The notes beneath the pieces are model-generated. The model ran no database searches, had not been told where the DNA came from, and worked only from the letters and a program-made list of their open reading frames with translations. From a virus (taxonomy: Duplodnaviria > Heunggongvirae > Uroviricota > Caudoviricetes): DNA of 64,000 nucleotides. Made by a program: the position numbers and the translations under genes. The DNA lies in the IMG/VR virus record IMGVR_UViG_3300048590_001376. The stretch is one strand, 5' to 3'. This document shows positions 20,118-56,260 of the stretch, in pieces (positions within the stretch are counted from its first letter, which is position 1; every line of letters starts with the position of its first letter).

Positions 20118-20182
20118 GTTCAAACCTCCTTGAAAGAACCGCGACTTTCACAGGGTCGCGAGCTGTTGGCAAAAAACGCTCT

Positions 20183-23230: not shown

Positions 23231-23231
23231 G

Positions 23232-29825: not shown

Positions 29826-31691
29826 TCACCAACTCTCGTCGCTAATGATTGACCTTACATCGCTGCCTCCACTGGAACGGCGGCCGTAGTTTCGCTCCAG
29901 GTACGCTACAAGGTCATTTTCGTTTTCGTCAAGCTGTCCTTCGCGCTCGCGCTGTCGCTGGATGTGCTCCGGCGCTGGCGGCCACGACACGAGCGGGCCA
30001 GAGTACATGGCGAACTGGCTATTGAGCGAATGCAGCTCGCGGACGGCATGGAACAGCATGACCGTGGCGTCGCCCTTGTCAGGCGAGCGACCGAGCTTTT
30101 CGCGGACAGTCGGCGCGTCCTCGGCCATACCAGGATGACGGTCCTTTGGCGTCAGCAGGAATCGCAGGCTGTCGCCGCTACTGGAATAGACCTTTTCCGG
30201 GGCACATAATTCCTGGGCCAGCTCATCGTCATCGGGCAGCATCCAGGCGGTATCGCCCCACTGGTCATCCGGGTTGAGCCGGCGGCCGAGCGTGCCATAG
30301 GACTCGGCTCGCAGGTTGCCGTAATAGGCCCGCAGCTCCATGCTTGGTGCCGCGCCGCCCATGAACTCGATCACCCAGACGCCCATGTCCTTGAGCTTGT
30401 CGGCGGTGCCGGCGCCCAGCCCGACTGTATCAACCACGACGGGATGGCAGTGCTTAGTCAGGTCGATGCCATACGTCTCGCTGACCAGATGGACGATGTA
30501 CGCAGCATGCTCCGTGGTGCTCGTCTTCTGCCAGGTGTGCAGCGCCTTGAGCCCCAGTAAACCGCCAACGGCCAGGACGGTGTTGTCGCCGGAGAGCGAG
30601 CGGGCCACGTCGACCGCGAAACATTCGATCTCGATCGCCTCGTAGTTCCACGCTTGCTGGTGCCGCCGCAGCCACGAGGCCAGGATGACTTGCTTCTCGA
30701 TGTCTTCGGTTGGAAACTTGCCATGAGCGAAGATGTCAACGTGTCGCTGATCCAGATGGCGACTGATGCCCTGGAAGCGAGCCAGATCGCATTGGTTGGG
30801 GATCAGCGGCCGGACGTGAACATAGTATTCATCCGGGATGCGTTCATTTGGCTGAAATACGCGGTCTTTGATCGTGATGCCGTTCGGTGGCGCAACAGGC
30901 GTTTCGAGTCGCGATCGCTTGACATTGGAGCAGTCGAGGCCGCCGACAGTGACGCATCGCCTCAGACCGAACGCACCCTCGACTGTCTGCGTGACATCCC
31001 GGTCGACACATGGATCGTACCCCTTGTAAAACCAGCCAGAGAGCGTGCGAGGATTAGACAGCGCCACAATCTTGCGGAACTGCTTCTGGGCGTTCTCGTA
31101 GAGCAGCCCGCGGCAGTTCGAGGACTCGTCGAACACGAATAGAGTACGCGGCCCATGTTGCCCTGAAAAGCCTTCGCCGCTCGACGGGTTGCGGACGACA
31201 AGGTAGCGAGTTTCGTGGCACTTGATTTCATCAGTGAGGGCGTCGCCTGGCAAGTCGACGGCTGCGGTGTTGCGCCACATCAGCACTTCGCCGTAGAGGT
31301 TTTTCTGGCAGTGCTCGTAGCTGGTCGACGTGAGGATGATCTTGCATTCATCCCAAACATAGAGCCACAGATTGATGGCGATCGAGACGGCCGTGCCCTT
31401 GCCGGCCTTCGTGTTTCCTTTGATGAAAATCTCGCGGATCGTGTCGTCGAAGAAAGATCGGATGATGTCGCGCTGCCAGTTGTCGATGCACAGGCAAGGG
31501 TCGAGCGGCTTGCCGGGCTCGCCTTCGAAGAATCCTGTTTCGGCTGGATCGGTGACGATCAGCGACGGCCAGATATGGGCGATCAGCGGGAACGGGTCGC
31601 CAGCGCGGCACTTGCGTTTCAGAAACTCGATCGCTGCCGCTTCCAGGGCTATTGGGTTGATCTCAGCGGGTGGCGAGTTGACGGTGCTCAT
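29826..31691 (-). CDS. Terminase large subunit.
   Basis: 621 aa with an N-terminal ATPase (Walker A-like GNTKAGKGT, Walker B-like LFVFDESS) and a C-terminal nuclease-like half. Upstream of the portal. Confidence 0.6.
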   Translation of the reverse strand: MSTVNSPPAEINPIALEAAAIEFLKRKCRAGDPFPLIAHIWPSLIVTDPAETGFFEGEPGKPLDPCLCIDNWQRDIIRSFFDDTIREIFIKGNTKAGKGTAVSIAINLWLYVWDECKIILTSTSYEHCQKNLYGEVLMWRNTAAVDLPGDALTDEIKCHETRYLVVRNPSSGEGFSGQHGPRTLFVFDESSNCRGLLYENAQKQFRKIVALSNPRTLSGWFYKGYDPCVDRDVTQTVEGAFGLRRCVTVGGLDCSNVKRSRLETPVAPPNGITIKDRVFQPNERIPDEYYVHVRPLIPNQCDLARFQGISRHLDQRHVDIFAHGKFPTEDIEKQVILASWLRRHQQAWNYEAIEIECFAVDVARSLSGDNTVLAVGGLLGLKALHTWQKTSTTEHAAYIVHLVSETYGIDLTKHCHPVVVDTVGLGAGTADKLKDMGVWVIEFMGGAAPSMELRAYYGNLRAESYGTLGRRLNPDDQWGDTAWMLPDDDELAQELCAPEKVYSSSGDSLRFLLTPKDRHPGMAEDAPTVREKLGRSPDKGDATVMLFHAVRELHSLNSQFAMYSGPLVSWPPAPEHIQRQREREGQLDENENDLVAYLERNYGRRSSGGSDVRSIISDESW

Positions 31692-32248
31692 TTCAGGCCA
31701 GTGTTCTCGCGTTCAAGATCGAGGCCCGACAGATTCATGTAGTCGTTAGAGAGCAGTCGGTACGTCCTCACGAAAGCAAATCCGGTGACAAACGCCTGGA
31801 GTTGATTCAGCCCCCATGCGTTTAGCTCGCTAATTTCCTTGTTGATGGACTCCTCGATGTCGCCCGGCCTCAAGTCGGTCGACGCATGAGCTGAGATATA
31901 CTTGGCCGACTTCGCCAGCACAAAATTCAACAGCGTATGCTCAGGGTTCGCCACTTCGTGGTAGAGCTTTACGAGATCGCTGATCGCAAACTGGACCGCA
32001 AACGATACGGTAACGACCTTGCCGTCCGACGTGGCCATCGTCTGGTTGGTCGTCGTCATTATTCGCAGTCGAACGCTCTGTGAATAAACGCGGTCGAGAA
32101 ACGGGATGCGGAAGTGGATTCCGGGCGATAGTAGCTTCGTGGTTTTGCCGAGACGAACGAGCAGTCCAGCCTCCCATGCGGCGATAACAACCCACCATTG
32201 AAATGGCTTGCCGATCGATCCGAGTAACTGTGTGAGCCAGGTGGACAT
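31688..32248 (-). CDS. SPFH / band-7 (stomatin-prohibitin) domain protein.
   Basis: WVVIAAWEAGLLVRLGKTTKLLSPGIHFRIPFLDRVYSQSVRLRIMTTTNQTMATSDGKVVTVSFAV resembles the SPFH core. Start at the ATG at 32246-32248. ATGA overlap with the large terminase. Confidence 0.55.
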   Translation of the reverse strand: MSTWLTQLLGSIGKPFQWWVVIAAWEAGLLVRLGKTTKLLSPGIHFRIPFLDRVYSQSVRLRIMTTTNQTMATSDGKVVTVSFAVQFAISDLVKLYHEVANPEHTLLNFVLAKSAKYISAHASTDLRPGDIEESINKEISELNAWGLNQLQAFVTGFAFVRTYRLLSNDYMNLSGLDLERENTGLK

Positions 32249-32249
32249 G

Positions 32250-32678
32250 TTATCTCGGCTTGCTGGACTTCGCTGAGAACCCAATCTCTTCGAGTCGCTT
32301 GAACACGTTGGCTATCGTCTTCTCGCCCACGTTCGACAGCGACATGAGTTGCCCGCGAGTGAGCTTAAGAAGATCCTTTAGGTATAGCACTCCGGCCTCT
32401 TCCATGCGGTTCACGAACCGCAGCTCGATGTCGCCGAAGATTTCGGCCAGGCTGGTTTCCAGCCACAGCTCGCGAGTCATTTCTTCGGAGCACGCCTGGC
32501 CCACCGACTTCAATTCTTTCTCTAATTCCATGATCCGCTCATTGTGAAAGTCGATCTGCATCTGAATGCAGCGGGCTCGCGTCAGTGGCGTCGATCCAGT
32601 GATGCCATCCACGCCGAGAATAACCTGAGACTCATTCCCCTTGACGAAGCGACGGCGGCCTTCGATTTGCTTGATCAT
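32250..32678 (-). CDS. DNA-binding protein with an RNA polymerase alpha-CTD-like helix-hairpin-helix; possible small terminase.
   Basis: C-terminal LRFVNRMEEAGVLYLKDLLKLTRGQLMSLSNVGEKTIANVFKRLEEIG resembles an alpha-CTD. Lies immediately upstream of the SPFH and TerL genes. Confidence 0.4.
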   Translation of the reverse strand: MIKQIEGRRRFVKGNESQVILGVDGITGSTPLTRARCIQMQIDFHNERIMELEKELKSVGQACSEEMTRELWLETSLAEIFGDIELRFVNRMEEAGVLYLKDLLKLTRGQLMSLSNVGEKTIANVFKRLEEIGFSAKSSKPR

Positions 32679-35340: not shown

Positions 35341-35769
35341 TTAGCGTCCGTTCGCAACGGAACTCGCTCGCGGTTCCGTTGCTTGCAAATCGTCAGGCAC
35401 ATGCCGCTCCAGTACCGCCCGCTCATTCCCCAGGTCGCGATTCACTGCATCGTGCTCTGTGAACTTATTCGGATAACGAGCGCGGAGCTTGTTGATGTTG
35501 GCCACCATGCACTGCTCGAAGCTCACGCCGACGTGATCGCAGAGGATGGCCAGATACCAGAACGCATCGCCAATCTCTTCGGCGATGTTCGTGCGGTCGG
35601 CATGCTTGCCATAAAAGATCGTGCGCTTGAACGAGTCGGTCAGTTCGCCGATTTCAGTCGCGAGTCCAAAGATCGCATGTACGGCGCGAGCATCGGTAAT
35701 AAGGCGATTGGCTAGCTCCGGCGTGATAGGGGCCTCGGTGGTCAGTGCCTGCTCGATATAGTTTTTCAT
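35341..35769 (-). CDS. mazG: MazG-like nucleotide pyrophosphohydrolase.
   Basis: EIGELTDSF...AEEIGDAFWYLAILCDHVGVSFEQCMVANINKLRARY resembles the MazG signature. Confidence 0.55.
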   Translation of the reverse strand: MKNYIEQALTTEAPITPELANRLITDARAVHAIFGLATEIGELTDSFKRTIFYGKHADRTNIAEEIGDAFWYLAILCDHVGVSFEQCMVANINKLRARYPNKFTEHDAVNRDLGNERAVLERHVPDDLQATEPRASSVANGR

Positions 35770-36471: not shown

Positions 36472-37011
36472 CTAAATGGTTGATGCTTTTGGTCGCCGCC
36501 CTATCTTTCCTCGTGACACTGCGACGATTGAATAGTCAATTACGTCTGGAAAGTTTAGTTTCGCAAATTCTCCAGCCAACTCTCTGGCTGCTTGGTCGTA
36601 GGCCAGTGCCGCAACCTCTTCGCTTACGAATGTCCCTAGGTGCTTGCGAACTTTATTGAACGTGATATGTGACACCCAGCAGTTATTTTGCGAATGTCTT
36701 CGCACTCCCTTGAATCGCGAACTCGTTCCAAGAACCGGCCCGCGATTGTGCTGATTTTGTGGCTGTGTAGCTAATCGAAGATTGTGGCGCTGATTATCAA
36801 GTCCATTGCGGTTGCGATGATCCACGAGGCAGTCTGGCTCACCCATGATCATGCGGTGCATGTAAACCCTGCGGCCTTTTCGTCCGACTTGCATTTGGGC
36901 GTAGGATGTCTTGTTGCGAACCGCAAGTCGCCAGGGAAGGCTGGCAAGCCAATCGTAATCAGCATCATCAACAAGCACTTCATGGCCAGATGGCAAGCGT
37001 ATGATTTTCAT
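36472..37011 (-). CDS. HNH homing endonuclease with an AP2 DNA-binding domain.
   Basis: HNH core (HRMIMGEPDCLVDHRNRNGLDNQRHNLR) plus an AP2 domain (SSRFKGVRRHSQNNCWVSHITF...EEVAALAYDQAARELAGEFAKLNF). ATGA-coupled to the thyX-like gene. Confidence 0.6.
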   Translation of the reverse strand: MKIIRLPSGHEVLVDDADYDWLASLPWRLAVRNKTSYAQMQVGRKGRRVYMHRMIMGEPDCLVDHRNRNGLDNQRHNLRLATQPQNQHNRGPVLGTSSRFKGVRRHSQNNCWVSHITFNKVRKHLGTFVSEEVAALAYDQAARELAGEFAKLNFPDVIDYSIVAVSRGKIGRRPKASTI

Positions 37012-38414
37012 TTCACGAACTCTGCCACTTGTCCGATGCCGTCCGGTGAGTCGATTAACCGGATGTCCTGAAATGAGTCTGCATACCTGCTTTTTTGCAA
37101 CTCACGAACCACCTGGACATAGACTTCCCGTATCTCTGCATCGGCGTGCCGGGAGCATCGCTGTTGAACCATCCTGCGCCACTGACTGACGGACGCGGAG
37201 AAGATCATTTCGGTTTGCAGTGCGTTGCCGAGATAGCCGCGTGCCGCGCCGCGGGCTTGCTTGCGGGCGGAAGTCTTGTCGACCTTGCGGTCGATCAGAT
37301 ACGCCTCAAGCTCGTGAACGGTCAGACGGTAAGTGTTCTGTGCCGACTTCATCGTTTCATCCGCACAGCTCGGGATAGCTGTGTCTTCGGCATGCACATC
37401 GTTGATGTATGCCGTGATCAGTGGATGCTCGACCCACGGCGAACCATCTTCATCCACATACCGCGTACTCCGCTGGCTGATCGCGGTGAAGTCGCCATGT
37501 CGGACTTGCTCGTGTGAGAAGCCGCGGCTGCCGGAGAGGTAGAGGGAGATCCACTTTTCGTGGTCAGTTTCAGGCGGCATGATCATCGCCGAAGTCGACG
37601 ACGATTGCTCCGGTCGCTTAATGATGTGTGGCGCAACTTGATGGCCAAGCTCAGCGAGAAGACGACCAAGATCATTGTGAGCATCAATTCGATACTCGTC
37701 GTCAAGGTTACCGAACTCGTCGGCGAAGGATTGCCATTCGAGTATCGCGCGAAGATTGACGGTTATTCTGAAATCGGCATTGTGCCAGTGGCTGTGGAAG
37801 ATAATGCCGGGACGATTAATCAGCAGATAGGCAGCGTAATCGGCATCGAAGCCCTGAACGCCGATCGTGAAATTGAAATGCTCCAACACGCTGCCGTGGC
37901 CAACGGCGAGGATGTGGTCGTGGTAGCCCTCAACTCTGCTGCATGACACGCCGGCTTTTTGTGCGAAATGGGCGGCGACATCGCTCCATTTCCTGAACTT
38001 GCCTGCCTTCATTGCGAACTCGATCAGCGACAGATTGTCGCCGTTTGCTGCGTCGTGATAGCGGCCATCCTTTATGTTCACAAATGCCGATGGATTGGAA
38101 TCTGCTCGACCGAACGCATGGCACGTCATGCAGCCATTGTGCTCGACGCCAACAAACTGCACCCCCAGCTCCCGATACTCGGCAATCACGTCTAGTTTCG
38201 ATGCGATCTCCGCGCTATTGAACTCTCCTGATCGGCTAAAGCTCGGCCTGCCCTTGCCCAGAGAGTCGTAACATACTCGCCCTGCCAACTCGCTCAGCCG
38301 CTCAGCCGCCGTCCCCTGCATTTGATCGCTGCGCGGCACGCCCATCTCTGGCGGAATTCGCACTTCGTCGCCGCCGTCCCAAACAAGGCGGGCTTTCAGT
38401 AGATCGTTGGACAT
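37008..38414 (-). CDS. thyX: ThyX-like flavin-dependent thymidylate synthase, unusually long with an N-terminal extension and an internal insertion.
   Basis: Motifs GHGSVLEHFNFT, SRGFSHEQVRHGDFTAISQRSTRYVD (RHR motif present as RHG; S-x-R-Y present), and ARGAARGYLGNALQTEMIFSASVSQWRRMV. The 468 aa length compares with about 220-250 for typical ThyX. Confidence 0.55.
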   Translation of the reverse strand: MSNDLLKARLVWDGGDEVRIPPEMGVPRSDQMQGTAAERLSELAGRVCYDSLGKGRPSFSRSGEFNSAEIASKLDVIAEYRELGVQFVGVEHNGCMTCHAFGRADSNPSAFVNIKDGRYHDAANGDNLSLIEFAMKAGKFRKWSDVAAHFAQKAGVSCSRVEGYHDHILAVGHGSVLEHFNFTIGVQGFDADYAAYLLINRPGIIFHSHWHNADFRITVNLRAILEWQSFADEFGNLDDEYRIDAHNDLGRLLAELGHQVAPHIIKRPEQSSSTSAMIMPPETDHEKWISLYLSGSRGFSHEQVRHGDFTAISQRSTRYVDEDGSPWVEHPLITAYINDVHAEDTAIPSCADETMKSAQNTYRLTVHELEAYLIDRKVDKTSARKQARGAARGYLGNALQTEMIFSASVSQWRRMVQQRCSRHADAEIREVYVQVVRELQKSRYADSFQDIRLIDSPDGIGQVAEFVK

Positions 38415-41234: not shown

Positions 41235-41759
41235 TCATCTTCGCTTCGCCTTTTTCCTTCGCTTGGCGGCCAGCAACTTCGGCAAGTCCTCTTCGGACAC
41301 AATGTAGCCCCGGCAGTTATACGAGCCACAGTGACATTTCGGGAACTCCCCTTGAAACGGCCAGCCGTAGTCGTAGCACAATTCCTGCCCGGTAGCGATG
41401 AAGCACAGAGCGCGCAACTCCCAACAGTGTGGGATGTTGGGATTGGTGTTCTGGATGCAGTTCGGCGAGCAGGAGTGGTTGACCAGGCCCCCCGGCATGT
41501 AGGGCTCCAGGATCATGCGATGATCGTCCAGTTCCATGCAGTAATGCGAGCCATAGGGCGATCGCTTGGTGTCTGGAATCAGCCGGCCGTAGATTCGCAT
41601 GACCAGCTCGTCCGGGAGAAAATCGCGCAGGGCGATCACAGAACGGCCAGCGTTGGGCGTGGTGATGATTTCAAAATTCGAGTAGAGATAGTCGTCCGTG
41701 CCGCGGCCATCGGGGTCGGTGAAGCGCGCGCGGGGGTTATTCTTCTTCGTCTTCGCCAT
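41235..41759 (-). CDS. SET-domain protein lysine methyltransferase with a post-SET Cys cluster.
   Basis: GGLVNHSCSPNC...ELCYDYGW...CHCGSYNCRGYI matches the SET plus post-SET signature. Start at the ATG at 41757-41759; the ORF-track start at 41789 is a TTG codon. Confidence 0.65.
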   Translation of the reverse strand: MAKTKKNNPRARFTDPDGRGTDDYLYSNFEIITTPNAGRSVIALRDFLPDELVMRIYGRLIPDTKRSPYGSHYCMELDDHRMILEPYMPGGLVNHSCSPNCIQNTNPNIPHCWELRALCFIATGQELCYDYGWPFQGEFPKCHCGSYNCRGYIVSEEDLPKLLAAKRRKKAKRR

Positions 41760-42879
41760 CGTTTTCGTCTTCTGTTTCGTCGGGGTCAAAGTACAGGAAC
41801 ACCGGGTCGCCCGTTTCCGGGCAGAGAGCCCAGAAATTGTGCGTGTCGGTCGGCACGGTCATTTCGCGAATCGGAATGTAACCATGGGCGCCGCCGCAGC
41901 GATCGCAGCAAGGGATCGATGAATAGGGTTGCTCTTCGGCCTTTTTCGGGTCGGCCTGGATGACGCGCATGGCGCAGAGCGAATCGAACACGCCGCGGCC
42001 GTCGATGATCGTGCGGTCCTGCTCGGTCCCTTGGTCCAGCGCGCAGGCAAAGGCATCGCGTTGAATGCGATCTTTGAAAACGAGCACGGCATAGAAGCCT
42101 GGATCGTCGCGGTCCCCGGTGGAAGAGACTTGCTTCTGGGTGCGGTCGGTCGCCTCGCGGATTCTCTCGGCCAAGTCCTCTAAGTCAGGCGCGCGATCCT
42201 CGAATCCTTCGTCGCCAAAGAGGCGGTAGTATTCGCCCAGGTCAAAGCCCGCTTCCTCGATGCCGATCTTGTCATCGGCGAAGAGAGATTTCAGTTTGTC
42301 TTGATCGTACTCGCCTTGCATGAGCGCGTTGGAAAGTGCGGTCATGGTTTCCAGGTGAGTTTTTTCGTCCATGTCGACCACGGCGACGTGCAGCCGGTAG
42401 TTGGTCCCCTTGTGGTGCGAATCCATGATCGAGAGACGCTGGTGGCCGCCGACGAGATAGCCGTTGCGTTTGTTCCAGACGATCGGCTCGATCAGGCCGA
42501 CGCGCTTGATCGTCGATTGGAGCTTCTTGCGGGCCTTGGACGTGATGGTTTTCGGGTTTTTCGGGTGCGGCTTGAGATCGCGCCGGTGCTTGACCTCGAA
42601 CGTGAATTTCTCCAGCTCGGTCAGCGCGGCGGGCGCAGTGTCTTTAGCGCGCGAGGACTTCGCGGCGGCTGGAGAGGGTGTTTCAGAGGGAGAGGGGTCG
42701 CCGGCGGCTTCTGCGGGCTCGGCCTGTGGGCTGCCTGTGTGATCGTCGTGTGATGGCTGTGGGGCTTCTGCGGGCTCCCCGGTGCCAACGACTGGCTCTC
42801 CGGCCTCACTGGGCGGCTGAGGCGGCTGCTGCTTCGCCTTGCGGGGCTTCCTGGCCTTCGTCTCGTCAGTTAGTTCCAT
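41737..42879 (-). CDS. ParB-like nuclease domain (ParB/Srx fold) protein, IbrB-like.
   Basis: IEPIVWNKRNGYLVGGHQRLSIMD resembles the ParBc motif. Has an acidic low-complexity N-terminus and an acidic C-terminus. Confidence 0.5.
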   Translation of the reverse strand: MELTDETKARKPRKAKQQPPQPPSEAGEPVVGTGEPAEAPQPSHDDHTGSPQAEPAEAAGDPSPSETPSPAAAKSSRAKDTAPAALTELEKFTFEVKHRRDLKPHPKNPKTITSKARKKLQSTIKRVGLIEPIVWNKRNGYLVGGHQRLSIMDSHHKGTNYRLHVAVVDMDEKTHLETMTALSNALMQGEYDQDKLKSLFADDKIGIEEAGFDLGEYYRLFGDEGFEDRAPDLEDLAERIREATDRTQKQVSSTGDRDDPGFYAVLVFKDRIQRDAFACALDQGTEQDRTIIDGRGVFDSLCAMRVIQADPKKAEEQPYSSIPCCDRCGGAHGYIPIREMTVPTDTHNFWALCPETGDPVFLYFDPDETEDENDGEDEEE

Positions 42880-43445
42880 GTTCTGCCTCTGATTACGTTG
42901 GCGATCGTTGCAGCACTGACACCAAACTCACGGCCGAGCATTGCGTAACTCATGTCGCCAACGGCATATTTGCGGCGAATCTCACTCGCCTTAGCTGTGG
43001 TCAGAATGGCGCTGCCGTTTAGTTCGCCCTTGTTGTGTCGAGTCTGAGTGTTATGCCTGATTCGATCTCGATAATTCTCCATTGGCGTGCCCCACTTGAT
43101 TTCGCTTAACCGATTGTCGGACTTATCGCCATCCTTATGACGACACTCCTGACCCGGCGGACACGGACCAACGAATGCTTCGAGAATAAGGCGATGAACC
43201 AAACAAAGTATTTTCTTGCCATCGCGACACAGGCTGACTCGGTAGTACCCGCCTGATGTTTTAATTGGACGAAGCTGATGCCACGTATCACTTAAATAAG
43301 ATTCGCAGCCACCACCTTTTTTGCCCCTGACTTTCCGGCAGCTCCAAACAGAGCCATCATCGCCTGCCCTATAGCCAGGGAACCGCTTAATCGGCCTGTA
43401 CTGGACGGGCACGGTCTTTTGCTGCTGCATGCGTTCCAATTCCAT
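42870..43445 (-). CDS. HNH homing endonuclease (NUMOD4 plus HNH_3).
   Basis: RPIKRFPGYRAGDDGSVWS (NUMOD4-like) and CRHKDGDKSDNRLSEIKWGT (HNH). Start taken at the internal ATG at 43443-43445 to avoid overlapping the PAPS-reductase-like gene. Inserted between the ParB-like and PAPS-reductase-like genes. Confidence 0.55.
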   Translation of the reverse strand: MELERMQQQKTVPVQYRPIKRFPGYRAGDDGSVWSCRKVRGKKGGGCESYLSDTWHQLRPIKTSGGYYRVSLCRDGKKILCLVHRLILEAFVGPCPPGQECRHKDGDKSDNRLSEIKWGTPMENYRDRIRHNTQTRHNKGELNGSAILTTAKASEIRRKYAVGDMSYAMLGREFGVSAATIANVIRGRTWN

Positions 43446-44106
43446 ACCAATCACGACGCTTAACAATTGCTTCAACGAATGGATAGACAAGCCGGATTTT
43501 CTCGTAATCCTCCGGGAAGGAATCATATAGCCACAGTACGCTCGAAACCGTCAACCCCAGACCGCCAGAAGTTGCCCCGTCCGACGATGGGACGGGGATT
43601 TTCTTGGATTGCAAATAGGCGAGAACGTGCCACTTGTTCCATTTCTCGATCGGATAGATGCGTTCCTGGTGAGACTTCGAGAGCGCTTTCATCGTCCGGC
43701 GACGCCAGAGCGAATCGGACATCTTGCCACCATGGGCCACGATCGAGCATTTGGCGTCAGAGAGGGCCAGCCGCTCGATGTCATGGACATTCAGGTCGGG
43801 CATCGAGGCGAACGCGGGGTCCGGGAAGCGGTAGGTGCCGTGCTTGAGGCATTGCAGCATGCCCCAGTGCGGATACTGGCGGATGTCGATTTTCCATCGC
43901 TGGCGAGCGTACTCCAGGCGTTCTTCGACGTGGGCCAGGCCCGGCACGAAAAACATGTGAAACGCTTCAACGCGCGCGAAGAGAGAGCAGCACAGGTCCA
44001 TCACGCACAGCGAATCCTTGCCGCCGGAGTAGCTGACGAGGATCGAGTCGTGCTCTTTGGCGAGACGGACCAGACGCTTAATGGTCTGGTCGAATACGAC
44101 AGCCAT
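43387..44106 (-). CDS. PAPS reductase / PP-loop ATP pyrophosphatase family protein (IbrA-like).
   Basis: ILVSYSGGKDSLCVMDL contains the PP-loop SGGKDS. Start at the ATG at 44104-44106. Confidence 0.6.
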   Translation of the reverse strand: MAVVFDQTIKRLVRLAKEHDSILVSYSGGKDSLCVMDLCCSLFARVEAFHMFFVPGLAHVEERLEYARQRWKIDIRQYPHWGMLQCLKHGTYRFPDPAFASMPDLNVHDIERLALSDAKCSIVAHGGKMSDSLWRRRTMKALSKSHQERIYPIEKWNKWHVLAYLQSKKIPVPSSDGATSGGLGLTVSSVLWLYDSFPEDYEKIRLVYPFVEAIVKRRDWYGIGTHAAAKDRARPVQAD

Positions 44107-44208
44107 CGGTGAAGCCCCGAACGCGCACAAAAAAAGAGCAGCCAGGATCGCATGAGTTAGATGCGATCCTGGCGAAACAGTCGAGTTGAAGAGACGGACG
44201 CGAGAGGC

Positions 44209-44565
44209 TTACTGCCCGGCGCCGGTCTTGGCGTTGATGCGGCCAGACTTGATCAGCGAGGACAGCTTTCGCTTGCCGTGACGCTTGACGAGATTGGCCA
44301 TGCGGCCACCCTTGCCGCCGGACTTCTTGCCGCCGGACTTTTTCTTCGGCGCGGCCTTTTTCTTCGGCGCGGCCTTCTTCGGTGCGGCTGCCTTTTTCTT
44401 GGCGGCCTTCTTCTTCGGTGCGGCCGGCTTCTTTTTGGGAGCGGCCTTCGGCTTCGCTTTCTTCTTCGCCACGTTGACTCCTTTCACAGTGTCAATGACC
44501 TTGCGAACGGCGCGGCCGGCTTTGTAAGCCACGCTCGGTTCGCTCTTACGACGTTTCTTTGCCAT
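44209..44565 (-). CDS. Histone H1-like Lys/Ala/Pro-rich DNA-binding protein.
   Basis: 118 aa with AKKKAKPKAAPKKKPAAPKKKAAKKKAAAPKKAAPKKKAAPKKK. The gene stands alone with intergenic regions on both sides. Possible TTGACG -35 element upstream. Confidence 0.55.
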   Translation of the reverse strand: MAKKRRKSEPSVAYKAGRAVRKVIDTVKGVNVAKKKAKPKAAPKKKPAAPKKKAAKKKAAAPKKAAPKKKAAPKKKSGGKKSGGKGGRMANLVKRHGKRKLSSLIKSGRINAKTGAGQ

Positions 44566-44655: not shown

Positions 44656-45057
44656 CTAGGTCCATTCGGTGAATGTCTCGCATTGCTCGCGCTCGAAGCC
44701 GTACTCCGGGATGATCAAGCCGTCGATGTTTTGCTCCAGCCACTCGGCGACGTAGCGACGATGGCAGTAGTCCAATGGCTCGCAGAAGCAGAGCATGGCG
44801 ATCGCTTCGCATCCTGGTGCCAGGCCCGCGGTCAGCTCGGTGAGGAATGCGTGCGGGTCGAGCGAATGGAAGATCGGAAAGTAAAGTGCATCGTACTCCT
44901 CGTGCGTTTTGGCTTTCATGGCCAGCGGCGGCGGCGCGACGGTGTAGATGCGTCTGCCGCGAAAGTTGCGGGCTGGCCAGCGGGCAATCGATACGGGCTC
45001 GATCGAGGGCGGCAGCGTGCGGATGCGAGAAAAACAGGACGTGTAAAGTTCGATCAT
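44656..45057 (-). CDS. DUF488-like protein (uncertain).
   Basis: 133 aa with an MIELYTS...CFCEPLDYCHRRYVAEWL pattern. Preceded by a terminator and the start-associated motif. Confidence 0.35.
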   Translation of the reverse strand: MIELYTSCFSRIRTLPPSIEPVSIARWPARNFRGRRIYTVAPPPLAMKAKTHEEYDALYFPIFHSLDPHAFLTELTAGLAPGCEAIAMLCFCEPLDYCHRRYVAEWLEQNIDGLIIPEYGFEREQCETFTEWT

Positions 45058-46020: not shown

Positions 46021-48264
46021 TTAGTCAAACAAGAACTTCTCGCGGAACGTGATCTTCCGCTTGGGTGCCGCCGGCTTGGACTGCTCGACGACGGGTTGCG
46101 GCTGCGGCTGCTGCTTTCGCTGACGGCCAGCGGCTTTGTCAGGCTTGGCAGGCGGCAATGATGCGGCCACTGGTGCGGCTGGTGCCACTGCCGGCGGCTT
46201 GAAGTGAGCATTGCCTTGCACCTGACTGACTTTCGACCAGACGCGCTCGGCGTCCATGTCATCCATGCGGTTGACGAGCGAGCGAGCCAGAGCGATTTGC
46301 ATCGACTCGTCGTCTTCACCCGACATGGCCGCGAGCCCTTCGGACGAAAATTTACCCTCGATCGCTTCGGACGCCACGAGCTTGCGTCCCATGAGCGTCA
46401 TCGCGCGGGCCTGCATGGTGCCGGCATAGAACGAGTAGAACACCTTGCATGGCAGGTGCTGGCCAATCCGCCATGAACGGCGAGCGGCCTGCCGCAGCGT
46501 GAACAGGTCGTAGCCGGTTTCGTGAAAGAACAACGAGGGGAAGTTGTGTCGCCCTCGCTTGTCGAACAGATCGAGCCCAGTGCGGACCAGCCGGGGATGT
46601 GAAATGATCACGTCCAGCTTGGGCGCGTGCTCGTTAATCCAGTCCTCGCGAGCATCGGTGCTGACGGATGACCGCAGCACGCGAGCCTTGAGTTTGGCAT
46701 CCCGTAGGGCACGCTCCACGCGGCCAGCGACATCGTGCTTGTTGGTGCAAGTGACGTACACCCAGCACTGCCGGCCGGCGCCATGCTCGGCCAGGATCGT
46801 TTCGACCAGGGCTTGCTCTTTCGCACGGATGGACTCACCCAAGTCCGGCGGTTGGACCACCGGAATGAAGTGATTCTGGATACCCTTGGGCGTCTCGACC
46901 TTTTGCCAATAGCCCACTTCGTCCCAGCCATACGGCATGTCCGGGTAAGTCAGCAGGCAATCAAGCATGGCGGACAGCAGGCGACGATCATTGCGAGCGA
47001 TCATCTGCTTGACGACGATGCGCAACGCCTCTTCGGTTTCCTGGTAGGCTTCCGCGAGCTTGCGGTCCATCTTGATCGGCATCACGATTTCCTCGAACGT
47101 GGGCAAGTTGTCAGACAACTCGTCCAGCGAGAGGAATACGCACTTGTCGATCAGGTGGCGGCCGAACAGCGTAGGCATGATGCCAGGGATGGCCTTTTGG
47201 ATCGTGCGCTGCGAGCCCTTCGATCGCTTGTTGTCAGCGCTCGCGGCGTCGCTCGTGGTGACGACCTTTGTTTCCATCCGGCCGTAGCGGCGATTGAAGT
47301 CCGTCACGTTGCCCCAATGCAAACCCTCGGCGGTGAGGGATTGTGGAGCGATGCGCAGGATCAGCGTGCGCAGGTGCCACGCATAACCGCCGACGAGCGT
47401 ACCAGTCAGGCCGATCACCTTGCGGCAAGCGGCGGCCAGCGTGCCCATGGCGTTGGCGCGGGCAGATGTCGGCGAATTCTCTTCATGGATTTCGTCGACC
47501 ACCAGATAGTCGAAGAATCCCCGCAGGTGCTTTTTGATGTAGTCCGCTGGCGCCCATTTCTTCGTGACGCCATTGTAGGTCCACAGCGGCGAGCCACAGC
47601 CTGGACTTTCTTCGGTGCCGACACAGAAGAGGCGACGCTTGGCCAGCTCGCTCGGCGGAATCGGCGACCCCTTTTTGTTGAGGATAAACCGCCCGCAATT
47701 CGGGCACTGCGGGCAAGTCGACTTGTCAACCTTTGAATAGCCCTTACGGGTTTTCCAGATCGTGTACGCCGGCTCCCAGGCCGCGCCGTCTTTGGCGGTC
47801 GTCTCTTTGACGATCCAGTATTCAGGACCAGTCGGGCGCGAGCGACGATCGAGGCGAGTGAGCTGCCGGAACGACCGGAGCTGTACAACTTGAGCGCCGG
47901 GGACAGTTTCTTCGATCTCGCGCTGCCATTTTTGCGTGAGTTGGGGCGGGCAGAAGATTAACACGCGCTGCGGCTTGCCTTTGCCGTACAACTTGATGGC
48001 GGCGTGAATTGCGGCCATCGCCATGATGGTTTTGCCGGTGCCACACTCGGCGACCATAAGAATCGCCGGGCTGTGCTCCAGCGCCTTGGCTGCTGCGGTG
48101 GCGGCGTGCAACTGCGGATCAAATGGCTTGCGATCGAAATCGAGTTCAATCGGCTTGTCGCGGCCAGGAACGTGCAGCGGCGTAAGTGTTTTAATGGATG
48201 ATCGGCCGAGTAATGGGCCGTACTGGGTCAAATAAGAATCGAGCGAATCGATGTTCGCGAGCAT
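46021..48264 (-). CDS. SNF2-family DEAD/DEAH-box helicase.
   Basis: Motif I AECGTGKT, motif II DEIHE, a helicase C region, and a Pro/Ala/Gln-rich basic tail. Start at the ATG at 48262-48264, preceded by the start-associated motif. The 24-aa N-terminal extension in the ORF track is rejected. Confidence 0.7.
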   Translation of the reverse strand: MLANIDSLDSYLTQYGPLLGRSSIKTLTPLHVPGRDKPIELDFDRKPFDPQLHAATAAAKALEHSPAILMVAECGTGKTIMAMAAIHAAIKLYGKGKPQRVLIFCPPQLTQKWQREIEETVPGAQVVQLRSFRQLTRLDRRSRPTGPEYWIVKETTAKDGAAWEPAYTIWKTRKGYSKVDKSTCPQCPNCGRFILNKKGSPIPPSELAKRRLFCVGTEESPGCGSPLWTYNGVTKKWAPADYIKKHLRGFFDYLVVDEIHEENSPTSARANAMGTLAAACRKVIGLTGTLVGGYAWHLRTLILRIAPQSLTAEGLHWGNVTDFNRRYGRMETKVVTTSDAASADNKRSKGSQRTIQKAIPGIMPTLFGRHLIDKCVFLSLDELSDNLPTFEEIVMPIKMDRKLAEAYQETEEALRIVVKQMIARNDRRLLSAMLDCLLTYPDMPYGWDEVGYWQKVETPKGIQNHFIPVVQPPDLGESIRAKEQALVETILAEHGAGRQCWVYVTCTNKHDVAGRVERALRDAKLKARVLRSSVSTDAREDWINEHAPKLDVIISHPRLVRTGLDLFDKRGRHNFPSLFFHETGYDLFTLRQAARRSWRIGQHLPCKVFYSFYAGTMQARAMTLMGRKLVASEAIEGKFSSEGLAAMSGEDDESMQIALARSLVNRMDDMDAERVWSKVSQVQGNAHFKPPAVAPAAPVAASLPPAKPDKAAGRQRKQQPQPQPVVEQSKPAAPKRKITFREKFLFD

Positions 48265-48308: not shown

Positions 48309-49046
48309 TCAGGACACTAAACCTAAATGCCTCCAAGCCTTTCCATTCAATATCCTGTATATAGTTGATTTATTCACGCACAATTTATTAGCTATATCGA
48401 TAGCAGACCGCCTGCCAGACGTGATGTCGTTAAAGGCGGTTCTGACTTGCATTTCCGTGAGCTTGTGCATCGGCTGATCTTCGCCGACAGCTCGCTTATA
48501 GCTTTGTGTTCCATGAACATACATATCTGCTGAATTCTCGTTCCGTGTCCCCCATTGAATATTGTTGAGTCTGTTGTTTGATCGATCGCGATCTGGAAAG
48601 TGACGGCACACCATCCCTGGCGGTCGCGGTCCCACGAAAGTTTCTAACACTAGGTCGTGAACGTACCTCATCTCCGGTGGAGACTGCAATGAAACGGCAA
48701 GGTATCCACTAATAGGATTTTTGGCTGGGCGTCTCTTTTTCCATTCGCCACAGATCATCGACCAAATCGATCCGTCCGTTCCAGCAGCATAGTTTTCCCT
48801 TCCAGGGACTAACTTGTACCTCACTCCCGGCTTGCTAGGCGGAAGTGGCGATAGTAATTCTGGAAATAACCTCCTCCACATCGTGTTTACGTAGATGTTG
48901 ATACGGACTCCATTGCGGTAAAAGCCGATCGCACCACTACCTGGAATCTTGAGCTTCTTCCACGAGCCGGATACGTCGGACCAGATGGATCTATCTGACC
49001 CAATGGCGTACTGGCTGGCATTAGGAATTCTTCGACGCTCTATCAT
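48309..49046 (-). CDS. HNH homing endonuclease (two NUMOD-like motifs, HNH, HTH).
   Basis: GSDRSIWS and GTDGSIWS (NUMOD4-like), VCRHFPDRDRSNNRLNNIQWGT (HNH), and a C-terminal HTH (SAIDIANKLCVNKSTIYRIL). Confidence 0.55.
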   Translation of the reverse strand: MIERRRIPNASQYAIGSDRSIWSDVSGSWKKLKIPGSGAIGFYRNGVRINIYVNTMWRRLFPELLSPLPPSKPGVRYKLVPGRENYAAGTDGSIWSMICGEWKKRRPAKNPISGYLAVSLQSPPEMRYVHDLVLETFVGPRPPGMVCRHFPDRDRSNNRLNNIQWGTRNENSADMYVHGTQSYKRAVGEDQPMHKLTEMQVRTAFNDITSGRRSAIDIANKLCVNKSTIYRILNGKAWRHLGLVS

Positions 49047-49055: not shown

Positions 49056-49700
49056 TTATTCCACAATCTTAAGATGTCCTTCACGAACGCCGCGACTTAC
49101 TAAGTCGTCAAAATAGTCCGTCCCACCAACCACAACCACCGCGTTGCAGTTGAAGCACGACAGTTTCTCGATCGGACTGTTGCGGTAGCCGCGCTCATCG
49201 GCGAGCGCGGCTTGCATGATCCACGGCGTCCAGCTCCGCAGAACCGGCGTCGTGATATGCTCACTCCGCAAGAAATTCCAAAACGCCTGCTCGGTTAGGT
49301 CCGGGATCAGGCGTTTGTCTTTGGCGATGGCCAACATGTGCCATTGCCCTTCGGAGACGTAGTGCTTGTAGATGCGATAGCCGTTGTCATAGGGCTGGTA
49401 GTAGCCGTAGTAGATCGGGTCGCATCCAGTGAATCGCACCTGACCCACCTTGCTGTGCAGTAGGGCCGCCATCGCCTTGACGGACGTGGACGGCCCAACG
49501 GCTGACAGGATGGCCAGGTGCTCGCTGCGGTAGCCAGTCTTATCGATGGCCGCCGCGGCACAGCGAAGCGTGAAGTCCGAGCCCTTGGCGACCGTCTGGA
49601 CTGTTCCCAGCTTGCGTGGTGCCACTGCCGGCTCGCTACTCTTCGCTGTCGCTTCCCTGCTCATGGTCGTTTTCCTCGCTAGATTGCTCATCGGCTTCAT
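49056..49700 (-). CDS. Hypothetical protein.
   Basis: 214-aa ORF. Its start overlaps the methyltransferase gene end by about 65 nt, so the start is uncertain. Confidence 0.4.
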   Translation of the reverse strand: MKPMSNLARKTTMSREATAKSSEPAVAPRKLGTVQTVAKGSDFTLRCAAAAIDKTGYRSEHLAILSAVGPSTSVKAMAALLHSKVGQVRFTGCDPIYYGYYQPYDNGYRIYKHYVSEGQWHMLAIAKDKRLIPDLTEQAFWNFLRSEHITTPVLRSWTPWIMQAALADERGYRNSPIEKLSCFNCNAVVVVGGTDYFDDLVSRGVREGHLKIVE

Positions 49701-50697
49701 CCTGGAAGGTCATAATGTTGCCAAGGTGATCCAGGGCGCGAACCACCAGACTGATTTTTTCCGAATACACTTGGGTCGTTTGCACGGCCCCGTCCTCTTT
49801 TTCCTCTTCATCGCGGGACACCAGATAGGTGATCTTTTTGGCGGTCCCGCGAACAACGTGTGGCGGCTCGTCTGGCGGCGACACGATGCCATCCAGGTGC
49901 CCAGCGGTAAGCAATAGGGCTCGATGCCCCTTGCCTAACGACATGGGCGGCCGAGCGATGCCGCGATCGACTTGCGGTTGCAAGTGCTGATTGAGCGGCG
50001 AACGATCGACCATTTCCCAGGCTTCTTCGTCGGTCAGCATCGACTTGCGGAAGGTCGTGGGGCCTGGAGTCGCCGGAATGGCGTACAGTCCAGGGGAATC
50101 GCTCGCCTCAGTCGACCACTTGCGAAGCCATGAGGCTTCTGCTTTTTCGCGCTTCACGCCAAAGATGACCACTTCCTTGTACTGCCGGTGAGCAGCCAGG
50201 TAGGGCATCCAGGCGATCTGCCTGTATCGCCCCAGAAGCGTGTCGCAGATGTCCGATCGAGTCATCACGTCGGCCGGACAGGCGAGGCACATCACCCCGC
50301 CTGGCGCCAGTAGATCGGTGCAGCGGCGAAGGAATTGACCCTCGACGCGAACACCCCCGCCCAGCTCAAAGTCATAAGGCGGGTTGCACCAGATGAACCC
50401 GAACCGGCTGTGCGGGCTGACTGACACCGAGTTGAAGTCGGAGTAAAGAACCGTCGCCCCTTCGAGCAAGGCGGCGGCCTCGCGCGATCGGGTGCGGTCC
50501 AACTCCACGGCATAGACCATCTCCGGCGGAACATGCAAGGCGTCGGCGAACTGCTTGGCGGCAGCACCAGCGCCACAGCATGGGTCCAGGAAAGCAAAAC
50601 GGCCGCCAGTTGGCGGCCGAAGATGCTTGACGATGGAAGCGACGACTGGGGGCGGAACCGGGAAAAAACCACCGCGCTTTTGGCCTTCGAGCCTCAT
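49636..50697 (-). CDS. N6-adenine DNA methyltransferase-like protein.
   Basis: Motif I FLDPCCGAG, motif IV WCNPPYD (NPPY), and an acidic C-terminal tail. Confidence 0.55.
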   Translation of the reverse strand: MRLEGQKRGGFFPVPPPVVASIVKHLRPPTGGRFAFLDPCCGAGAAAKQFADALHVPPEMVYAVELDRTRSREAAALLEGATVLYSDFNSVSVSPHSRFGFIWCNPPYDFELGGGVRVEGQFLRRCTDLLAPGGVMCLACPADVMTRSDICDTLLGRYRQIAWMPYLAAHRQYKEVVIFGVKREKAEASWLRKWSTEASDSPGLYAIPATPGPTTFRKSMLTDEEAWEMVDRSPLNQHLQPQVDRGIARPPMSLGKGHRALLLTAGHLDGIVSPPDEPPHVVRGTAKKITYLVSRDEEEKEDGAVQTTQVYSEKISLVVRALDHLGNIMTFQDEADEQSSEENDHEQGSDSEE

Positions 50698-52286: not shown

Positions 52287-52516
52287 GTCAATCTCCGAAT
52301 TTGAATCAGTTCCAGTTCATGGTCCCATAGCCACTGGTCCTGGCCCTGGTAGCCCGGCGGATTGCGGCCATGCACGATGACGTTTTCCAAGTCGACTTCG
52401 CGAACCAGCGTCGCGCGTCGCCCCTGGCGGTCGGGCAGCTTGTTACGCACGACGCGGCCGATGAAGCCGGTGGTTTCGTGACGCACAAGCTGCCCACGGC
52501 GTAGTGCTCGGATCAT
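52283..52516 (-). CDS. Hypothetical small protein.
   Basis: 77 aa with a 4-nt overlap on both sides. Confidence 0.4.
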   Translation of the reverse strand: MIRALRRGQLVRHETTGFIGRVVRNKLPDRQGRRATLVREVDLENVIVHGRNPPGYQGQDQWLWDHELELIQIRRLT

Positions 52517-53577
52517 TTGCGGCCTTTGCCTTTCGGTTGGAGCAGTGCCGCGGCGGCCTCGGCCTGGTTGTCGACTGCCACGGCATGCGGGGTCATGCCA
52601 TCGGTATCCTTGATCTGCTTGGCTCCGTGCTCCAGCAGCAGTTGGATGTTGTCGACGGCGTTGAAGTAGGCGGCGTAATGCAACGCGGTCCAGGGGTCAT
52701 CTTCGGCCCGTAGATTCACGTCTGCGTCGGCGTTGAGCAGTTCGCTCAAGATCAGCAGATGCTCCGGCTTCTTGTAGCAGCACACCTTGCAGATGGCCTG
52801 GAAGCCTTCGTGCTCGCAGTTGGGCGACAATCCACGAGCGAGCAAATCCTGAACGCGGTTCACGTCGCCGCGGTGAATGGCGGCAAACAGGGCCTTCGGA
52901 GTCGGCGTATCGTCGCGCGGCTTGCGAGGCGCGTTACTTCGCTTTCCTGACGACTTGAATTCGCTCGACTGGATGCCGGTGCCATTGGCCCACGAGGCAA
53001 CGGCGTCGCGAATCGTGTTGCCTGCATCCTCTTCCGGCACGAGCGTTGACAGGGCGCCAACGATTGCAGTGTCGCCATGCGGCAGCACAAAGCCGAGCGT
53101 GCCCCGCGAGATGCCGATACCATTGTCTGGCTGGATGTCGAGCAGCAGGGCAATTTCTGGCAGCTCGGCTTGCTTGGCATATTCGAGCAGCTTGCCGAGC
53201 GTTTCCGTCGAGAGGACTGTCACGGAGTTGTAAGTGACGGACTCGATGACCTTAGCGACCGGCGGGAGCTTGCCGGGGTCTTTTAGGGCGATCACTTTTT
53301 CGAGAGCCAGCGATTTAGTTGCTCGCTTTGCCGTCAATTGCTCCAGGTGGCAAGCCTCGAAAACCTTGTCGGGCTCATTGGCTGCATTGTCAACCGACAC
53401 GGCGATCGCGATCCGGCTATCGGTGGCCAGTAGTCGCTGGCTCTTGCTGTCGAACATCGCGACGTGCAGTGCGTATCGCCCTGGTTCGCCGCAGATCGGG
53501 GCTACGTTGTGAATGCGGGTTAGGGTTGGCATGGTTGATTGCTCCAAAAGAAAACCGCCGGGCGCGACTGATGCCAC
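52513..53577 (-). CDS. Ankyrin-repeat protein with an unassigned N-terminal domain.
   Basis: C-terminal ankyrin repeats (DPWTALHYAAYFNAVDNIQLLLEHGA; GDVNRVQDLLARGLSPN). Confidence 0.5.
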   Translation of the reverse strand: MASVAPGGFLLEQSTMPTLTRIHNVAPICGEPGRYALHVAMFDSKSQRLLATDSRIAIAVSVDNAANEPDKVFEACHLEQLTAKRATKSLALEKVIALKDPGKLPPVAKVIESVTYNSVTVLSTETLGKLLEYAKQAELPEIALLLDIQPDNGIGISRGTLGFVLPHGDTAIVGALSTLVPEEDAGNTIRDAVASWANGTGIQSSEFKSSGKRSNAPRKPRDDTPTPKALFAAIHRGDVNRVQDLLARGLSPNCEHEGFQAICKVCCYKKPEHLLILSELLNADADVNLRAEDDPWTALHYAAYFNAVDNIQLLLEHGAKQIKDTDGMTPHAVAVDNQAEAAAALLQPKGKGRK

Positions 53578-55158: not shown

Positions 55159-55330
55159 CTAGAACGTGAACGGCTTGCGGCTTCATGCGAAACCTCTCGT
55201 AAACTGCCCGATCGGCGTCCGGCCGTCGCATGGCAATCTGCATGAGGCGCTGAGCCTCGTCGAAGTCGCCAGCGTTGCGGGCCTTGAAAGATGCTTCGAG
55301 TAAATCAGCCGTGGTTGCTTCGTTATCCAT
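55112..55330 (-). CDS. Hypothetical small protein.
   Basis: 72-aa ORF overlapping its neighbours; start uncertain. Confidence 0.3.
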   Translation of the reverse strand: MDNEATTADLLEASFKARNAGDFDEAQRLMQIAMRRPDADRAVYERFRMKPQAVHVLVDDADGIPHFVRIAE

Positions 55331-55979: not shown

Positions 55980-56260
55980 GCCGCCTCCAGTCTGGCAATC
56001 TCTGAACCCCAGTCGGTTCCGTCTACTGCAAGCGTGAAGTATACACGTTGCCCGCACCTGAGCCTTTTGAGAACAATTGGCTTGTCAGCCAGTGACTCAA
56101 CAGCCATGGCAAGCAGCCAGTGCGTTAATTCGTCGACACTCTGTTCGCAATCAACCGGCTTGCTTTTCTCGATAGCTTCACTGAGTAACTTGAAATCCAT
56201 TCGAGAAACGCCGGGCATGCCAACTGCAAACTGAATAGGAATGTGAAGGTACGCCATCAT
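55967..56260 (-). CDS. Hypothetical protein.
   Basis: 97-aa ORF. Confidence 0.35.
   Translation of the reverse strand: MMAYLHIPIQFAVGMPGVSRMDFKLLSEAIEKSKPVDCEQSVDELTHWLLAMAVESLADKPIVLKRLRCGQRVYFTLAVDGTDWGSEIARLEAAWLN

Follow-up and report, generated by a model that had tools for sequence, protein, structure and literature searches.

A gene for a SET-domain protein was found to close a conserved gene module in the phage represented by IMG/VR record IMGVR_UViG_3300048590_001376, and it closes the same module in at least five divergent relatives of this phage. The stretch analysed, referred to here as the window, is 64 kb of phage DNA with 58.4% G+C. The module consists of genes for a polybasic peptide, a PP-loop ATP-pyrophosphatase and a ParB-like protein, and the polybasic protein of the window, named KAP118, is a candidate substrate of the SET protein. 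Every window gene that was given an assignment lies on the minus strand, and the genes of this region are the following:

41235..41759, minus strand: putative SET and post-SET protein-lysine methyltransferase, 174 amino acids (aa) from the ATG, with a basic C-terminal helix and tail, KLLAAKRRKKAKRR

41737..42879, minus strand: ParB/Srx-like (IbrB-like) protein, 380 aa (PHROG 9353 at 1e-35, and PHROGs 620 and 723, 'ParB-like')

42870..43445, minus strand: HNH_3 homing-type endonuclease, between the PP-loop and ParB-like genes (Pfam HNH_3, 1.7e-10)

43387..44106, minus strand: PP-loop ATP-pyrophosphatase, similar to 3'-phosphoadenosine 5'-phosphosulfate (PAPS) reductase (IbrA/DndC-like), 239 aa (PF01507 at 8.3e-8; PHROGs 2302 and 424)

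44209..44565, minus strand: KAP118, a polybasic protein of 118 aa, recognised by composition, tandem repeat and position

44656..45057, minus strand: DUF488-N3a protein, 133 aa (Pfam PF22751 at 8.5e-6, just under the cutoff; PHROG 2450 at 5e-16)

The SET and post-SET signatures that an earlier note on this DNA had read at 41235..41759 were supported by a profile match, by motifs and by a fold model. The protein matched Pfam PF00856 with E=3.5e-11 and 43.9 bits (cutoff 22.4) over profile positions 1-105 of 105, and contained the motifs NHSCSPNC, ELCYDYGW and CHCGSYNC; its sequence matches in the PDB were to KMT2C, ASH1L, SETD2 and NSD, in their SET/post-SET domains. Conservation was scored on an alignment of 50 sequences (the window protein and 49 homologues), in which G38, G58, N94, H95, C97, C142, C144 and C149 were invariant and D130, Y131 and W133 nearly so; the post-SET zinc cluster is intact, C97, C142, C144 and C149 being its four cysteine ligands. 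An AlphaFold (AF2) model built on the homologue alignment had a predicted local distance difference test score (pLDDT) of 85.2 and a predicted template modelling score (pTM) of 0.77, and a Foldseek search of the PDB with this model returned MLL1/MLL3, SETD2, ASH1L and NSD (E values of 1e-10 to 1e-8, TM about 0.6-0.7). Because of the Pfam and PDB matches, the conserved catalytic and zinc-binding residues and the predicted fold, the SET protein appears to be intact and probably has lysine methyltransferase activity.

KAP118 contains 30.5% Lys, 18.6% Ala and 6.8% Pro (37% Lys+Arg) and two acidic residues, with an isoelectric point (pI) of 12.0. Its sequence starts with MAKKRRKS and continues through a short helix, a (KKAAAP)n tract and the segment SGGKKSGGKGG to a 31-aa extension ending in TGAGQ; in the core, an 18-nt (6-aa) unit is present in about 5-6 imperfect tandem copies. 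Its gene ends 102 nt before the ATG of the PP-loop gene (78 nt before a TTG start), both genes being on one strand. The coordinates and composition of the two Lys/Ala/Pro-rich genes named in the earlier note, this one and 23582..24412 (KAP276, considered below), were confirmed, and a filter for Lys/Ala/Pro-rich windows was passed only by these two among the open reading frames (ORFs) of the window and by almost nothing in about 1.05 Mb of other SET loci. Their description as H1-like was right as to the Lys/Ala/Pro-rich, basic composition and wrong as to homology: KAP118 had no Pfam or PHROG match, and Linker_histone, Hc1 and HC2 were absent even at E<=10. Homology searches with KAP118 and KAP276 were dominated by low-complexity candidates and returned nothing usable. 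The KAP118 gene had also been placed next to SET; it belongs to the same module, with three genes (ParB-like, HNH and PP-loop) and 2.45 kb between the two.

KAP118 aligned with 13 micro-proteins encoded at other loci (loci are numbered with the prefix L), and its segment SGGKKSGGKGG matched their Gly tails. These micro-proteins are mostly of 24-70 aa, usually start with MAK and usually end in a run of glycines, as in MAKAKLKPKKKVTAKVAAKKKPAAKAKKGGRKPKGGGGGGGG (L142) and MAKAKAKKGSKKGSKKGSKGKGGG (L109), whereas KAP118 has 118 aa and its 31-aa extension lies beyond the Gly segment. Long paralogues (67-115 aa) were found only in the SET-bearing clade, and the small ORFs of SET-bearing relatives have up to 49% Lys, a MAKK start and glycine-run ends such as SKGTG, RRTGGGSG, G8 and G6; the MAKKRRKS start is common to KAP118 and a 115-aa protein of L102. 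Judged by sequence, KAP118 would be an enlarged member of a family of polybasic Gly-tailed micro-proteins and not a homologue of H1 or Hc1. A literature search returned no description of such a peptide family or of its association with SET, and the family is apparently undescribed so far. Micro-protein ORFs are located at L142 9803..9931, L109 9871..9945, L152 21..110 and L147 9905..9988, and further ones at L159 9844..9927, L116 100..234 and L150 9877..9984, among others.

Concerning the partners of the peptide, the SGGKDS motif was invariant in an alignment of four proteins of the PP-loop family, and the sole PDB profile match of this family was a weak one to TtuA (E=0.003). A DndC-type phosphorothioation enzyme was considered and rejected, with one invariant cysteine (C34) among the four family members and no Dnd/Ssp partner in a PADLOC scan; in the same scan a BrxP match covered the PP-loop region only (E=1e-4) and the module fitted no known defence system. 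The ParB-like protein of the window has a GGHQR box, a C-terminal Zn-ribbon-like CxxC and an acidic tail (pI 4.9), and the end of its gene overlaps the start of SET by 23 nt. The HNH_3 gene was absent at the corresponding position of L100, L102 and L103, where the PP-loop and ParB-like genes are contiguous, and its G+C content at third codon positions (GC3) was 0.54 as against about 0.75 in its neighbours, so that it looks like a recent mobile insertion specific to the window. Four HNH_3 homing-type endonuclease genes are present in the window (42870..43445, 48309..49046, 55323..56057 and 36472..37011), one of them with NUMOD4 and one with AP2.

IMG/VR and the JGI metagenomes were scanned with the four-sequence PP-loop alignment, and 30 distinct loci were obtained at 200 bits or more. 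A ParB-like gene was found by hidden Markov model immediately downstream of the PP-loop gene in 26 of them. A strict filter for the peptide gene (at most 500 nt upstream, same strand, 20-130 aa, at least 28% Lys+Arg, at most 6% Asp+Glu and at least two Gly in the last six residues) was passed by 17 of the 29 loci having upstream sequence, a number that rose to about 23 by eye when near-misses were included; elsewhere 21 ORFs passed this filter in 422.7 kb (both strands), most of them Arg-rich shadow ORFs, which gives a background of about 0.012 expected per locus. Ten of the 30 loci have DUF488-like genes, and a BLAST cluster joining ASCH and DUF488 is represented at 15. SET genes were found only in the clade of the window and in L150, about 25 loci being without one, and the peptide/PP-loop/ParB module is thus widespread in phages that do not carry SET. 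The notion that the Lys-rich gene is primarily the partner of SET was not supported: its conserved partners are the PP-loop and ParB-like genes, in many phages without SET.

Downstream of the module, L142 and L109 carry an HTH/DUF1441 gene and a gene for a large terminase of lambda type. More distant PAPS-reductase/ParB-like pairs, which have no Gly-tailed peptide, stand before terS/terL in RAP44 and LR1, two phages in culture. This position before the terminase genes, seen in several unrelated phages, points to a role at the start of the packaging/late operon, not in sulfur metabolism. The pairs just upstream of terS/terL are at L142 11771..14135, L109 11712..14194, L192 (Riemerella phage RAP44) and L191 (Lactobacillus phage LR1). 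The gene that follows SET was considered as a small terminase gene and rejected for now (hhalign probability of 0.1%, nothing relevant in PHROGs).

Single-protein scans of IMG/VR with the SET, ParB-like, portal and SNF2 proteins and a metagenome scan with the ParB-like protein returned no relatives; the lineage of the window phage is absent from the collections scanned, and its relatives were reached through an all-versus-all representative search followed by contig look-ups. The gene order in these relatives was as follows: in L100/L101, 40-aa and 69-aa basic ORFs, PAPS_reduct, ParB-like and SET; in L102, DUF6094, PAPS_reduct, SNF2, ASCH+DUF488, a 42-aa basic ORF, PAPS_reduct, ParB-like, the 115-aa basic ORF and SET; in L103, DUF6094, SNF2, 40-aa and 67-aa basic ORFs, PAPS_reduct, ParB-like, ASCH, two genes and SET; in L275, PAPS_reduct, ParB-like and SET; and in L276, ParB-like and SET. 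SET identities across these syntenic loci were 38-50%. The ParB-like gene is directly upstream of SET in the window, L100, L275 and L276, and the long peptide paralogue occupies this place in L102. Since the HNH gene is an insertion specific to the window and the relatives keep the succession peptide, PP-loop, ParB and SET, this would be the ancestral order. A BubE-family (PF20137) gene was seen in two SET-bearing relatives (L104 987..1391 and L102 18407..18691), the one in L104 overlapping with the end of SET.

An additional case was provided by L150, where SET (9246..9743) precedes the peptide gene (9877..9984, MARKVTRK...RRTGGGG) by about 130 nt and is followed, after the peptide, by PP-loop and ParB. 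This SET shares 28% identity with that of the window and 35-39% with SETs of Opitutales/Acidobacteria, and it falls in a separate clade of a neighbour-joining (NJ) tree, so it was recruited independently; SET thus joined the module at least two times, in the clade of the window and in L150. The co-occurrence in related phages to which the earlier note had looked was accordingly seen, with Lys-rich small proteins accompanying SET in L100/L101, L102 and L103, the relatives covering the region, and also in L150. A pattern scan of 2.9 million IMG/VR contigs confirmed at least 130 stretches with SET relatives, and among the best-scoring 80 loci, which were kept, the module was present only in L150 (returned again as L193); in the other 79 there was neither the module nor a Lys-rich or Gly-tailed gene near SET. 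A general pairing of SET with a Lys-rich gene was considered and rejected, none being found near SET in 80 bacterial, 12 remote viral and these 79 further viral loci. Because SET and the module are both rare, it is unlikely that they were juxtaposed twice independently by chance.

It is plausible, and we propose tentatively, that SET serves as an accessory of the module that methylates lysines of the polybasic micro-protein, its candidate substrate. SET would join the peptide/PP-loop/ParB module and would be co-translated with the ParB-like protein, because the two genes overlap; it would methylate lysines of the micro-protein, perhaps also those of its own basic tail, and this methylation would tune the binding of the polycation to DNA or to the acidic ParB-like partner. 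Methylation of a polybasic protein has two precedents, that of cpnSET of Chlamydia pneumoniae, which binds and methylates Hc1 according to the summary of Murata et al. 2007 in PMC3980110, and that of Go1-SET, which methylates MC1-alpha (PMC3980110). The chlamydial precedent on which the earlier note had relied is therefore sound as far as that summary goes, and its suggestion that SET may methylate a Lys-rich protein encoded by the phage has gained comparative support.

As with cpnSET and Hc1/Hc2, one genome encodes a prokaryote-type SET and Lys-rich proteins that are H1-like in composition. Unlike that pair, KAP118 has no similarity to Hc1/HC2 and comes from a family that goes with PP-loop and ParB genes, the system belongs to a phage and not to a developmental cycle, and the methylation is only a candidate. 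The pair of Go1-SET and MC1-alpha, in which a small stand-alone SET methylates a resident small basic DNA-architectural protein, would be of the same kind, but the substrate fold is unrelated and Go1-SET is cellular and has no operon link to PP-loop/ParB.

Several observations weigh against this proposal. There are only two independent associations of SET with the module, which is a small number, and the first may be partly inherited synteny, while the peptide of L150 is Arg-rich with only 17% Lys. The immediate conserved neighbour of SET is the ParB-like gene and not the peptide gene. The loci that lack SET, about 25 of 30, imply that the peptide works without methylation. The window SET has a serine (S40) at the second glycine of the GxG motif, a position occupied by Gly in at least 90% of the homologues. 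Finally, the chromosomal SETs of planctomycetes have no Lys-rich neighbour, and their native substrate could equally be the target of the phage enzyme.

The last point leads to the origin of the gene. A tblastn search of 50,697 GenBank phages with SET gave no match, and a HMMER scan of 1.84 billion representatives gave 2178 proteins at E<=1e-3, the top matches being small SET/post-SET proteins of 145-280 aa with 38-50% identity. The nearest relatives of the gene are phage-borne and the next ones are small chromosomal SET proteins of Planctomycetota. The best GTDB matches were overwhelmingly from this phylum (Rubripirellula, Pirellulaceae, Thermoguttaceae and Planctomycetaceae, 33-43% identity), and a homologous neighbouring region was common to 45 of 80 bacterial SET loci, mostly Planctomycetota, a pattern to be expected of chromosomal genes. 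In a rough NJ tree the window SET grouped with the other phage copies and two sequences from Rubripirellula metagenome-assembled genomes (MAGs), and this phage clade was placed beside a large planctomycete clade. The GC3 of the SET gene, 0.78, is like that of the phage's own genes. Because of the Planctomycetota homologues, the tree and this phage-like GC3, we infer that SET was captured long ago from the host lineage and kept long enough to gain the codon composition of the phage, and that the host of this phage, a large one, is probably a planctomycete bacterium.

The SETs of the two Rubripirellula MAGs (L017 and L018) group with the phage clade and not with the main chromosomal clade of planctomycetes, and they may either point to the host genus or be prophage copies; within 6 kb of SET, neither has a PP-loop or ParB gene. 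In many cellular small SET proteins the SET domain is fused to a long Lys-rich tail, for instance KKASAKKAVKKAVKKAAKK, and examples are L074 4081..4938, P0032, L086, L091, L058, L081, L077 and L087. These tails suggest nucleoid targeting or automethylation in the cellular family.

Such an origin would also suit a host-directed effector, an alternative that we consider possible though doubtful, in which the captured planctomycete SET methylates the target of the cellular enzyme or another host protein (a nucleoid protein, a translation factor or a transcription factor) during takeover, and its place beside ParB is inherited gene order of no functional meaning. The nearest cellular homologues are indeed chromosomal genes of Planctomycetota with conserved neighbours, the absence of a Lys-rich neighbour at the planctomycete loci implies that the native substrate is encoded elsewhere in the genome, and the 79 other viral SET loci without the module imply that viral SETs commonly act alone. 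PBCV-1 vSET, which targets host histone H3, and the bacterial effectors NUE and RomA act on host proteins, which counts in the same direction. Against this alternative, another SET lineage was recruited independently about 130 nt from the peptide gene in L150, and the adjacency of ParB and SET, with overlapping genes, was kept at 38-50% identity despite insertions and rearrangements.

That adjacency could also mean that SET and the acidic-tailed ParB-like protein associate in a complex and that the peptide is not the specific substrate of SET; SET would then methylate the ParB-like or PP-loop protein, or be carried onto DNA and methylate proteins bound there. The direct contact of the two genes in the window, L100, L275 and L276, with the overlap in the window, the acidic C-terminal tails of the ParB-like proteins of the window and L275 (less marked in L100 and L102) and the basic tails in which the phage SETs examined end all agree with this. 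It is nevertheless improbable, because in L150 SET lies upstream of the peptide gene and two genes from the ParB-like gene, and because three genes separate the ParB-like gene from SET in L103.

The earlier note had suggested a self-contained chromatin-like system in which SET, KAP118 and KAP276, the last possibly packaged in the virion, compact or protect phage DNA. The second protein of this proposal and its neighbour are:

23582..24412, minus strand: KAP276, head-module protein of 276 aa, pI 10.3, with a 'C..PAG..GGQF.S.G' motif, an AKP linker and an alpha/beta C-terminal part

24538..25104, minus strand: HExxH (zincin-like) head-module protein, 188 aa (HELSH motif in the translation)

Both KAP118 and KAP276 have Lys/Ala/Pro tracts, and KAP276 is flanked by the portal gene (25101..26792) and by a gene (22643..23464) that can be read as MuF-like from a C-terminal C..C/HP.C.C motif, with no family match. 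The motif L..LL...A......C..PAG..GGQF.S.G was found by motif search within the window only in KAP276 and the adjacent 188-aa protein, suggesting a head-targeted pair; it may serve packaged proteins as a signal for targeting to the head or for processing. From the position of its gene, packaging of KAP276 in the virion is plausible. However, the repeat occupies only about 27 of its 276 residues (about 80-107), KAP276 gave no Pfam match (Linker_histone, Hc1 and HC2 included, at E<=10), no PHROG match and no homologues in a search swamped by low-complexity sequence, and 17 kb separate its gene from SET, the two belonging to different functional modules. Comparison gave no tie between KAP276 and SET, and KAP276 is not part of the SET module; moreover, the conserved partners of KAP118 are enzymes (PP-loop, ParB) and not structural genes. 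Compaction or protection of DNA by such a system is a conjecture that we judge quite unlikely, and the labels 'histone H1-like' and 'self-contained chromatin system' should be abandoned. An AF2 model of KAP276 made without an alignment was unusable (pLDDT 46), and a PD-(D/E)xK reading of its C-terminal part (D...EVK and a predicted alpha-beta-beta-beta succession) is a guess.

That SET lacks catalytic activity or modifies something other than protein is very improbable: S40 alters the GxG motif, which is the motif for S-adenosylmethionine (SAM) binding, and a SET-type chain named BurB is among the PDB matches, but the remaining catalytic and Zn-binding residues show conservation, the predicted fold has a high confidence score, and conservation across divergent phages argues for purifying selection on SET.

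The proposal that SET methylates the micro-protein can be set beside other viral enzymes of this type. Stenotrophomonas phage Ps15 ORF62 is annotated as 'SET domain protein' (PMC9025141), so that a phage-encoded SET is already known as an annotation (PMC9025141). The pairing of SET with a candidate polybasic substrate in a conserved peptide/PP-loop/ParB module appears to be new. A virus-encoded SET is shared with PBCV-1 vSET, Ps15 ORF62 and at least 130 IMG/VR contigs, and a search with the family alignment of the window SET brought up 12 viral SETs, to which it is 25-33% identical. Unlike the window locus, 79 of the 80 best IMG/VR loci have no module, and the phage examples are uncharacterised; to our knowledge, no phage SET-domain enzyme has been characterised so far.

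As for the module itself, its two enzymes have the folds of the IbrA/IbrB-like pair, in which a PF01507 protein with an SGGxDS PP-loop is adjacent to a ParB-fold protein with a GxxR box. These folds also recall DndC/DndB (PMC12839542), but unlike DndC the PP-loop protein has a single invariant Cys, no Fe-S signature and no Dnd/Ssp partner detected by PADLOC. The Gly tails offer a different comparison. In TtuA-TtuB and Ncs6-Urm1 a PP-loop enzyme acts with a small protein that bears the reactive group on its C-terminal Gly-Gly, and the last residues of Pup are GGQ. In a similar way the PP-loop gene of the module adjoins a gene for a small protein whose last residue is nearly always Gly, and KAP118 ends in GAGQ, a likeness that serves as a lead only. 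Unlike TtuB and Urm1, the module peptides are polybasic and probably disordered and not of beta-grasp fold, and no E1-like gene is present. By this analogy the micro-proteins might be no passive DNA binders but carrier or tag peptides of a phage peptide-conjugation or DNA-modification pathway not recognised before, with SET as a regulator in some phages, an idea to which we give little credence. The PP-loop ATPase would activate the C-terminal glycine of the peptide by adenylation, followed by thiocarboxylation, amidation or ligation, and the ParB-like nucleoside triphosphatase would hand the activated peptide to DNA or proteins, the pathway standing at the head of the packaging operon.

An identical SET protein is encoded by 11 contigs of several JGI samples. 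Seven of these contigs measure 50-200 kb, and the two largest, of 174,324 and 174,365 bp, suggest that the phage genome is about 174 kb long. The SNF2, ankyrin and SPFH genes and the phage head module were present in the window as the earlier note had described, the remaining assigned features being:

3560..5980, minus strand: tape measure protein

18477..20123, minus strand: HK97-type capsid protein

20183..21796, minus strand: S78 prohead protease

25101..26792, minus strand: portal protein

46021..48264, minus strand: SNF2/ResIII-type helicase, 747 aa (Pfam ResIII and SNF2-rel_dom; PHROG 62)

49636..50520, minus strand: DUF6094 putative SAM-dependent methyltransferase (JGI Pfam call in L001; PADLOC mad2 and MTase_II matches)

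The SNF2 helicase gene has the same position in L102 and L103 and is syntenic across the SET-bearing phage clade, and the DUF6094 gene is also present in L102 and L103 and syntenic in that clade. The window further encodes an ankyrin-repeat protein (52513..53577), an SPFH/Band_7 protein (31688..32284), a DUF6011 protein (58625..59299) and a weak RNA-polymerase alpha-CTD-like protein (about 32250..32678, a JGI call in L001), an unusual repertoire in which nothing was found that ties these genes to SET. A ThyX fusion of 468 aa (37008..38414, TIGR02170 on residues 295-441), a dATP/dGTP diphosphohydrolase N-domain protein (PF18909, 38755..39408) and, grouped with them, a MazG gene (about 35341..35769; L001 15991..16419) suggest rewiring of the nucleotide pool and possibly a non-canonical base in the phage DNA.

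The comparative genomics nominates SET and KAP118, or the micro-peptides, as a cognate pair, and if this is true, the logic of a writer plus a basic DNA binder, as in eukaryotes, Chlamydia and methanogens, extends to bacteriophages. The work also exposes a widespread three-gene phage module, often near terminase genes, that appears to be undescribed. Its PP-loop gene is routinely annotated as a 'PAPS reductase' auxiliary gene of sulfur metabolism (a viral auxiliary metabolic gene, or 'AMG'). Because this gene is linked in a conserved way with those for a polybasic peptide and a protein of ParB fold, our results argue for a nucleic-acid-centred role rather than one in sulfur metabolism, which, if true, changes the reading of a common viral 'AMG'.

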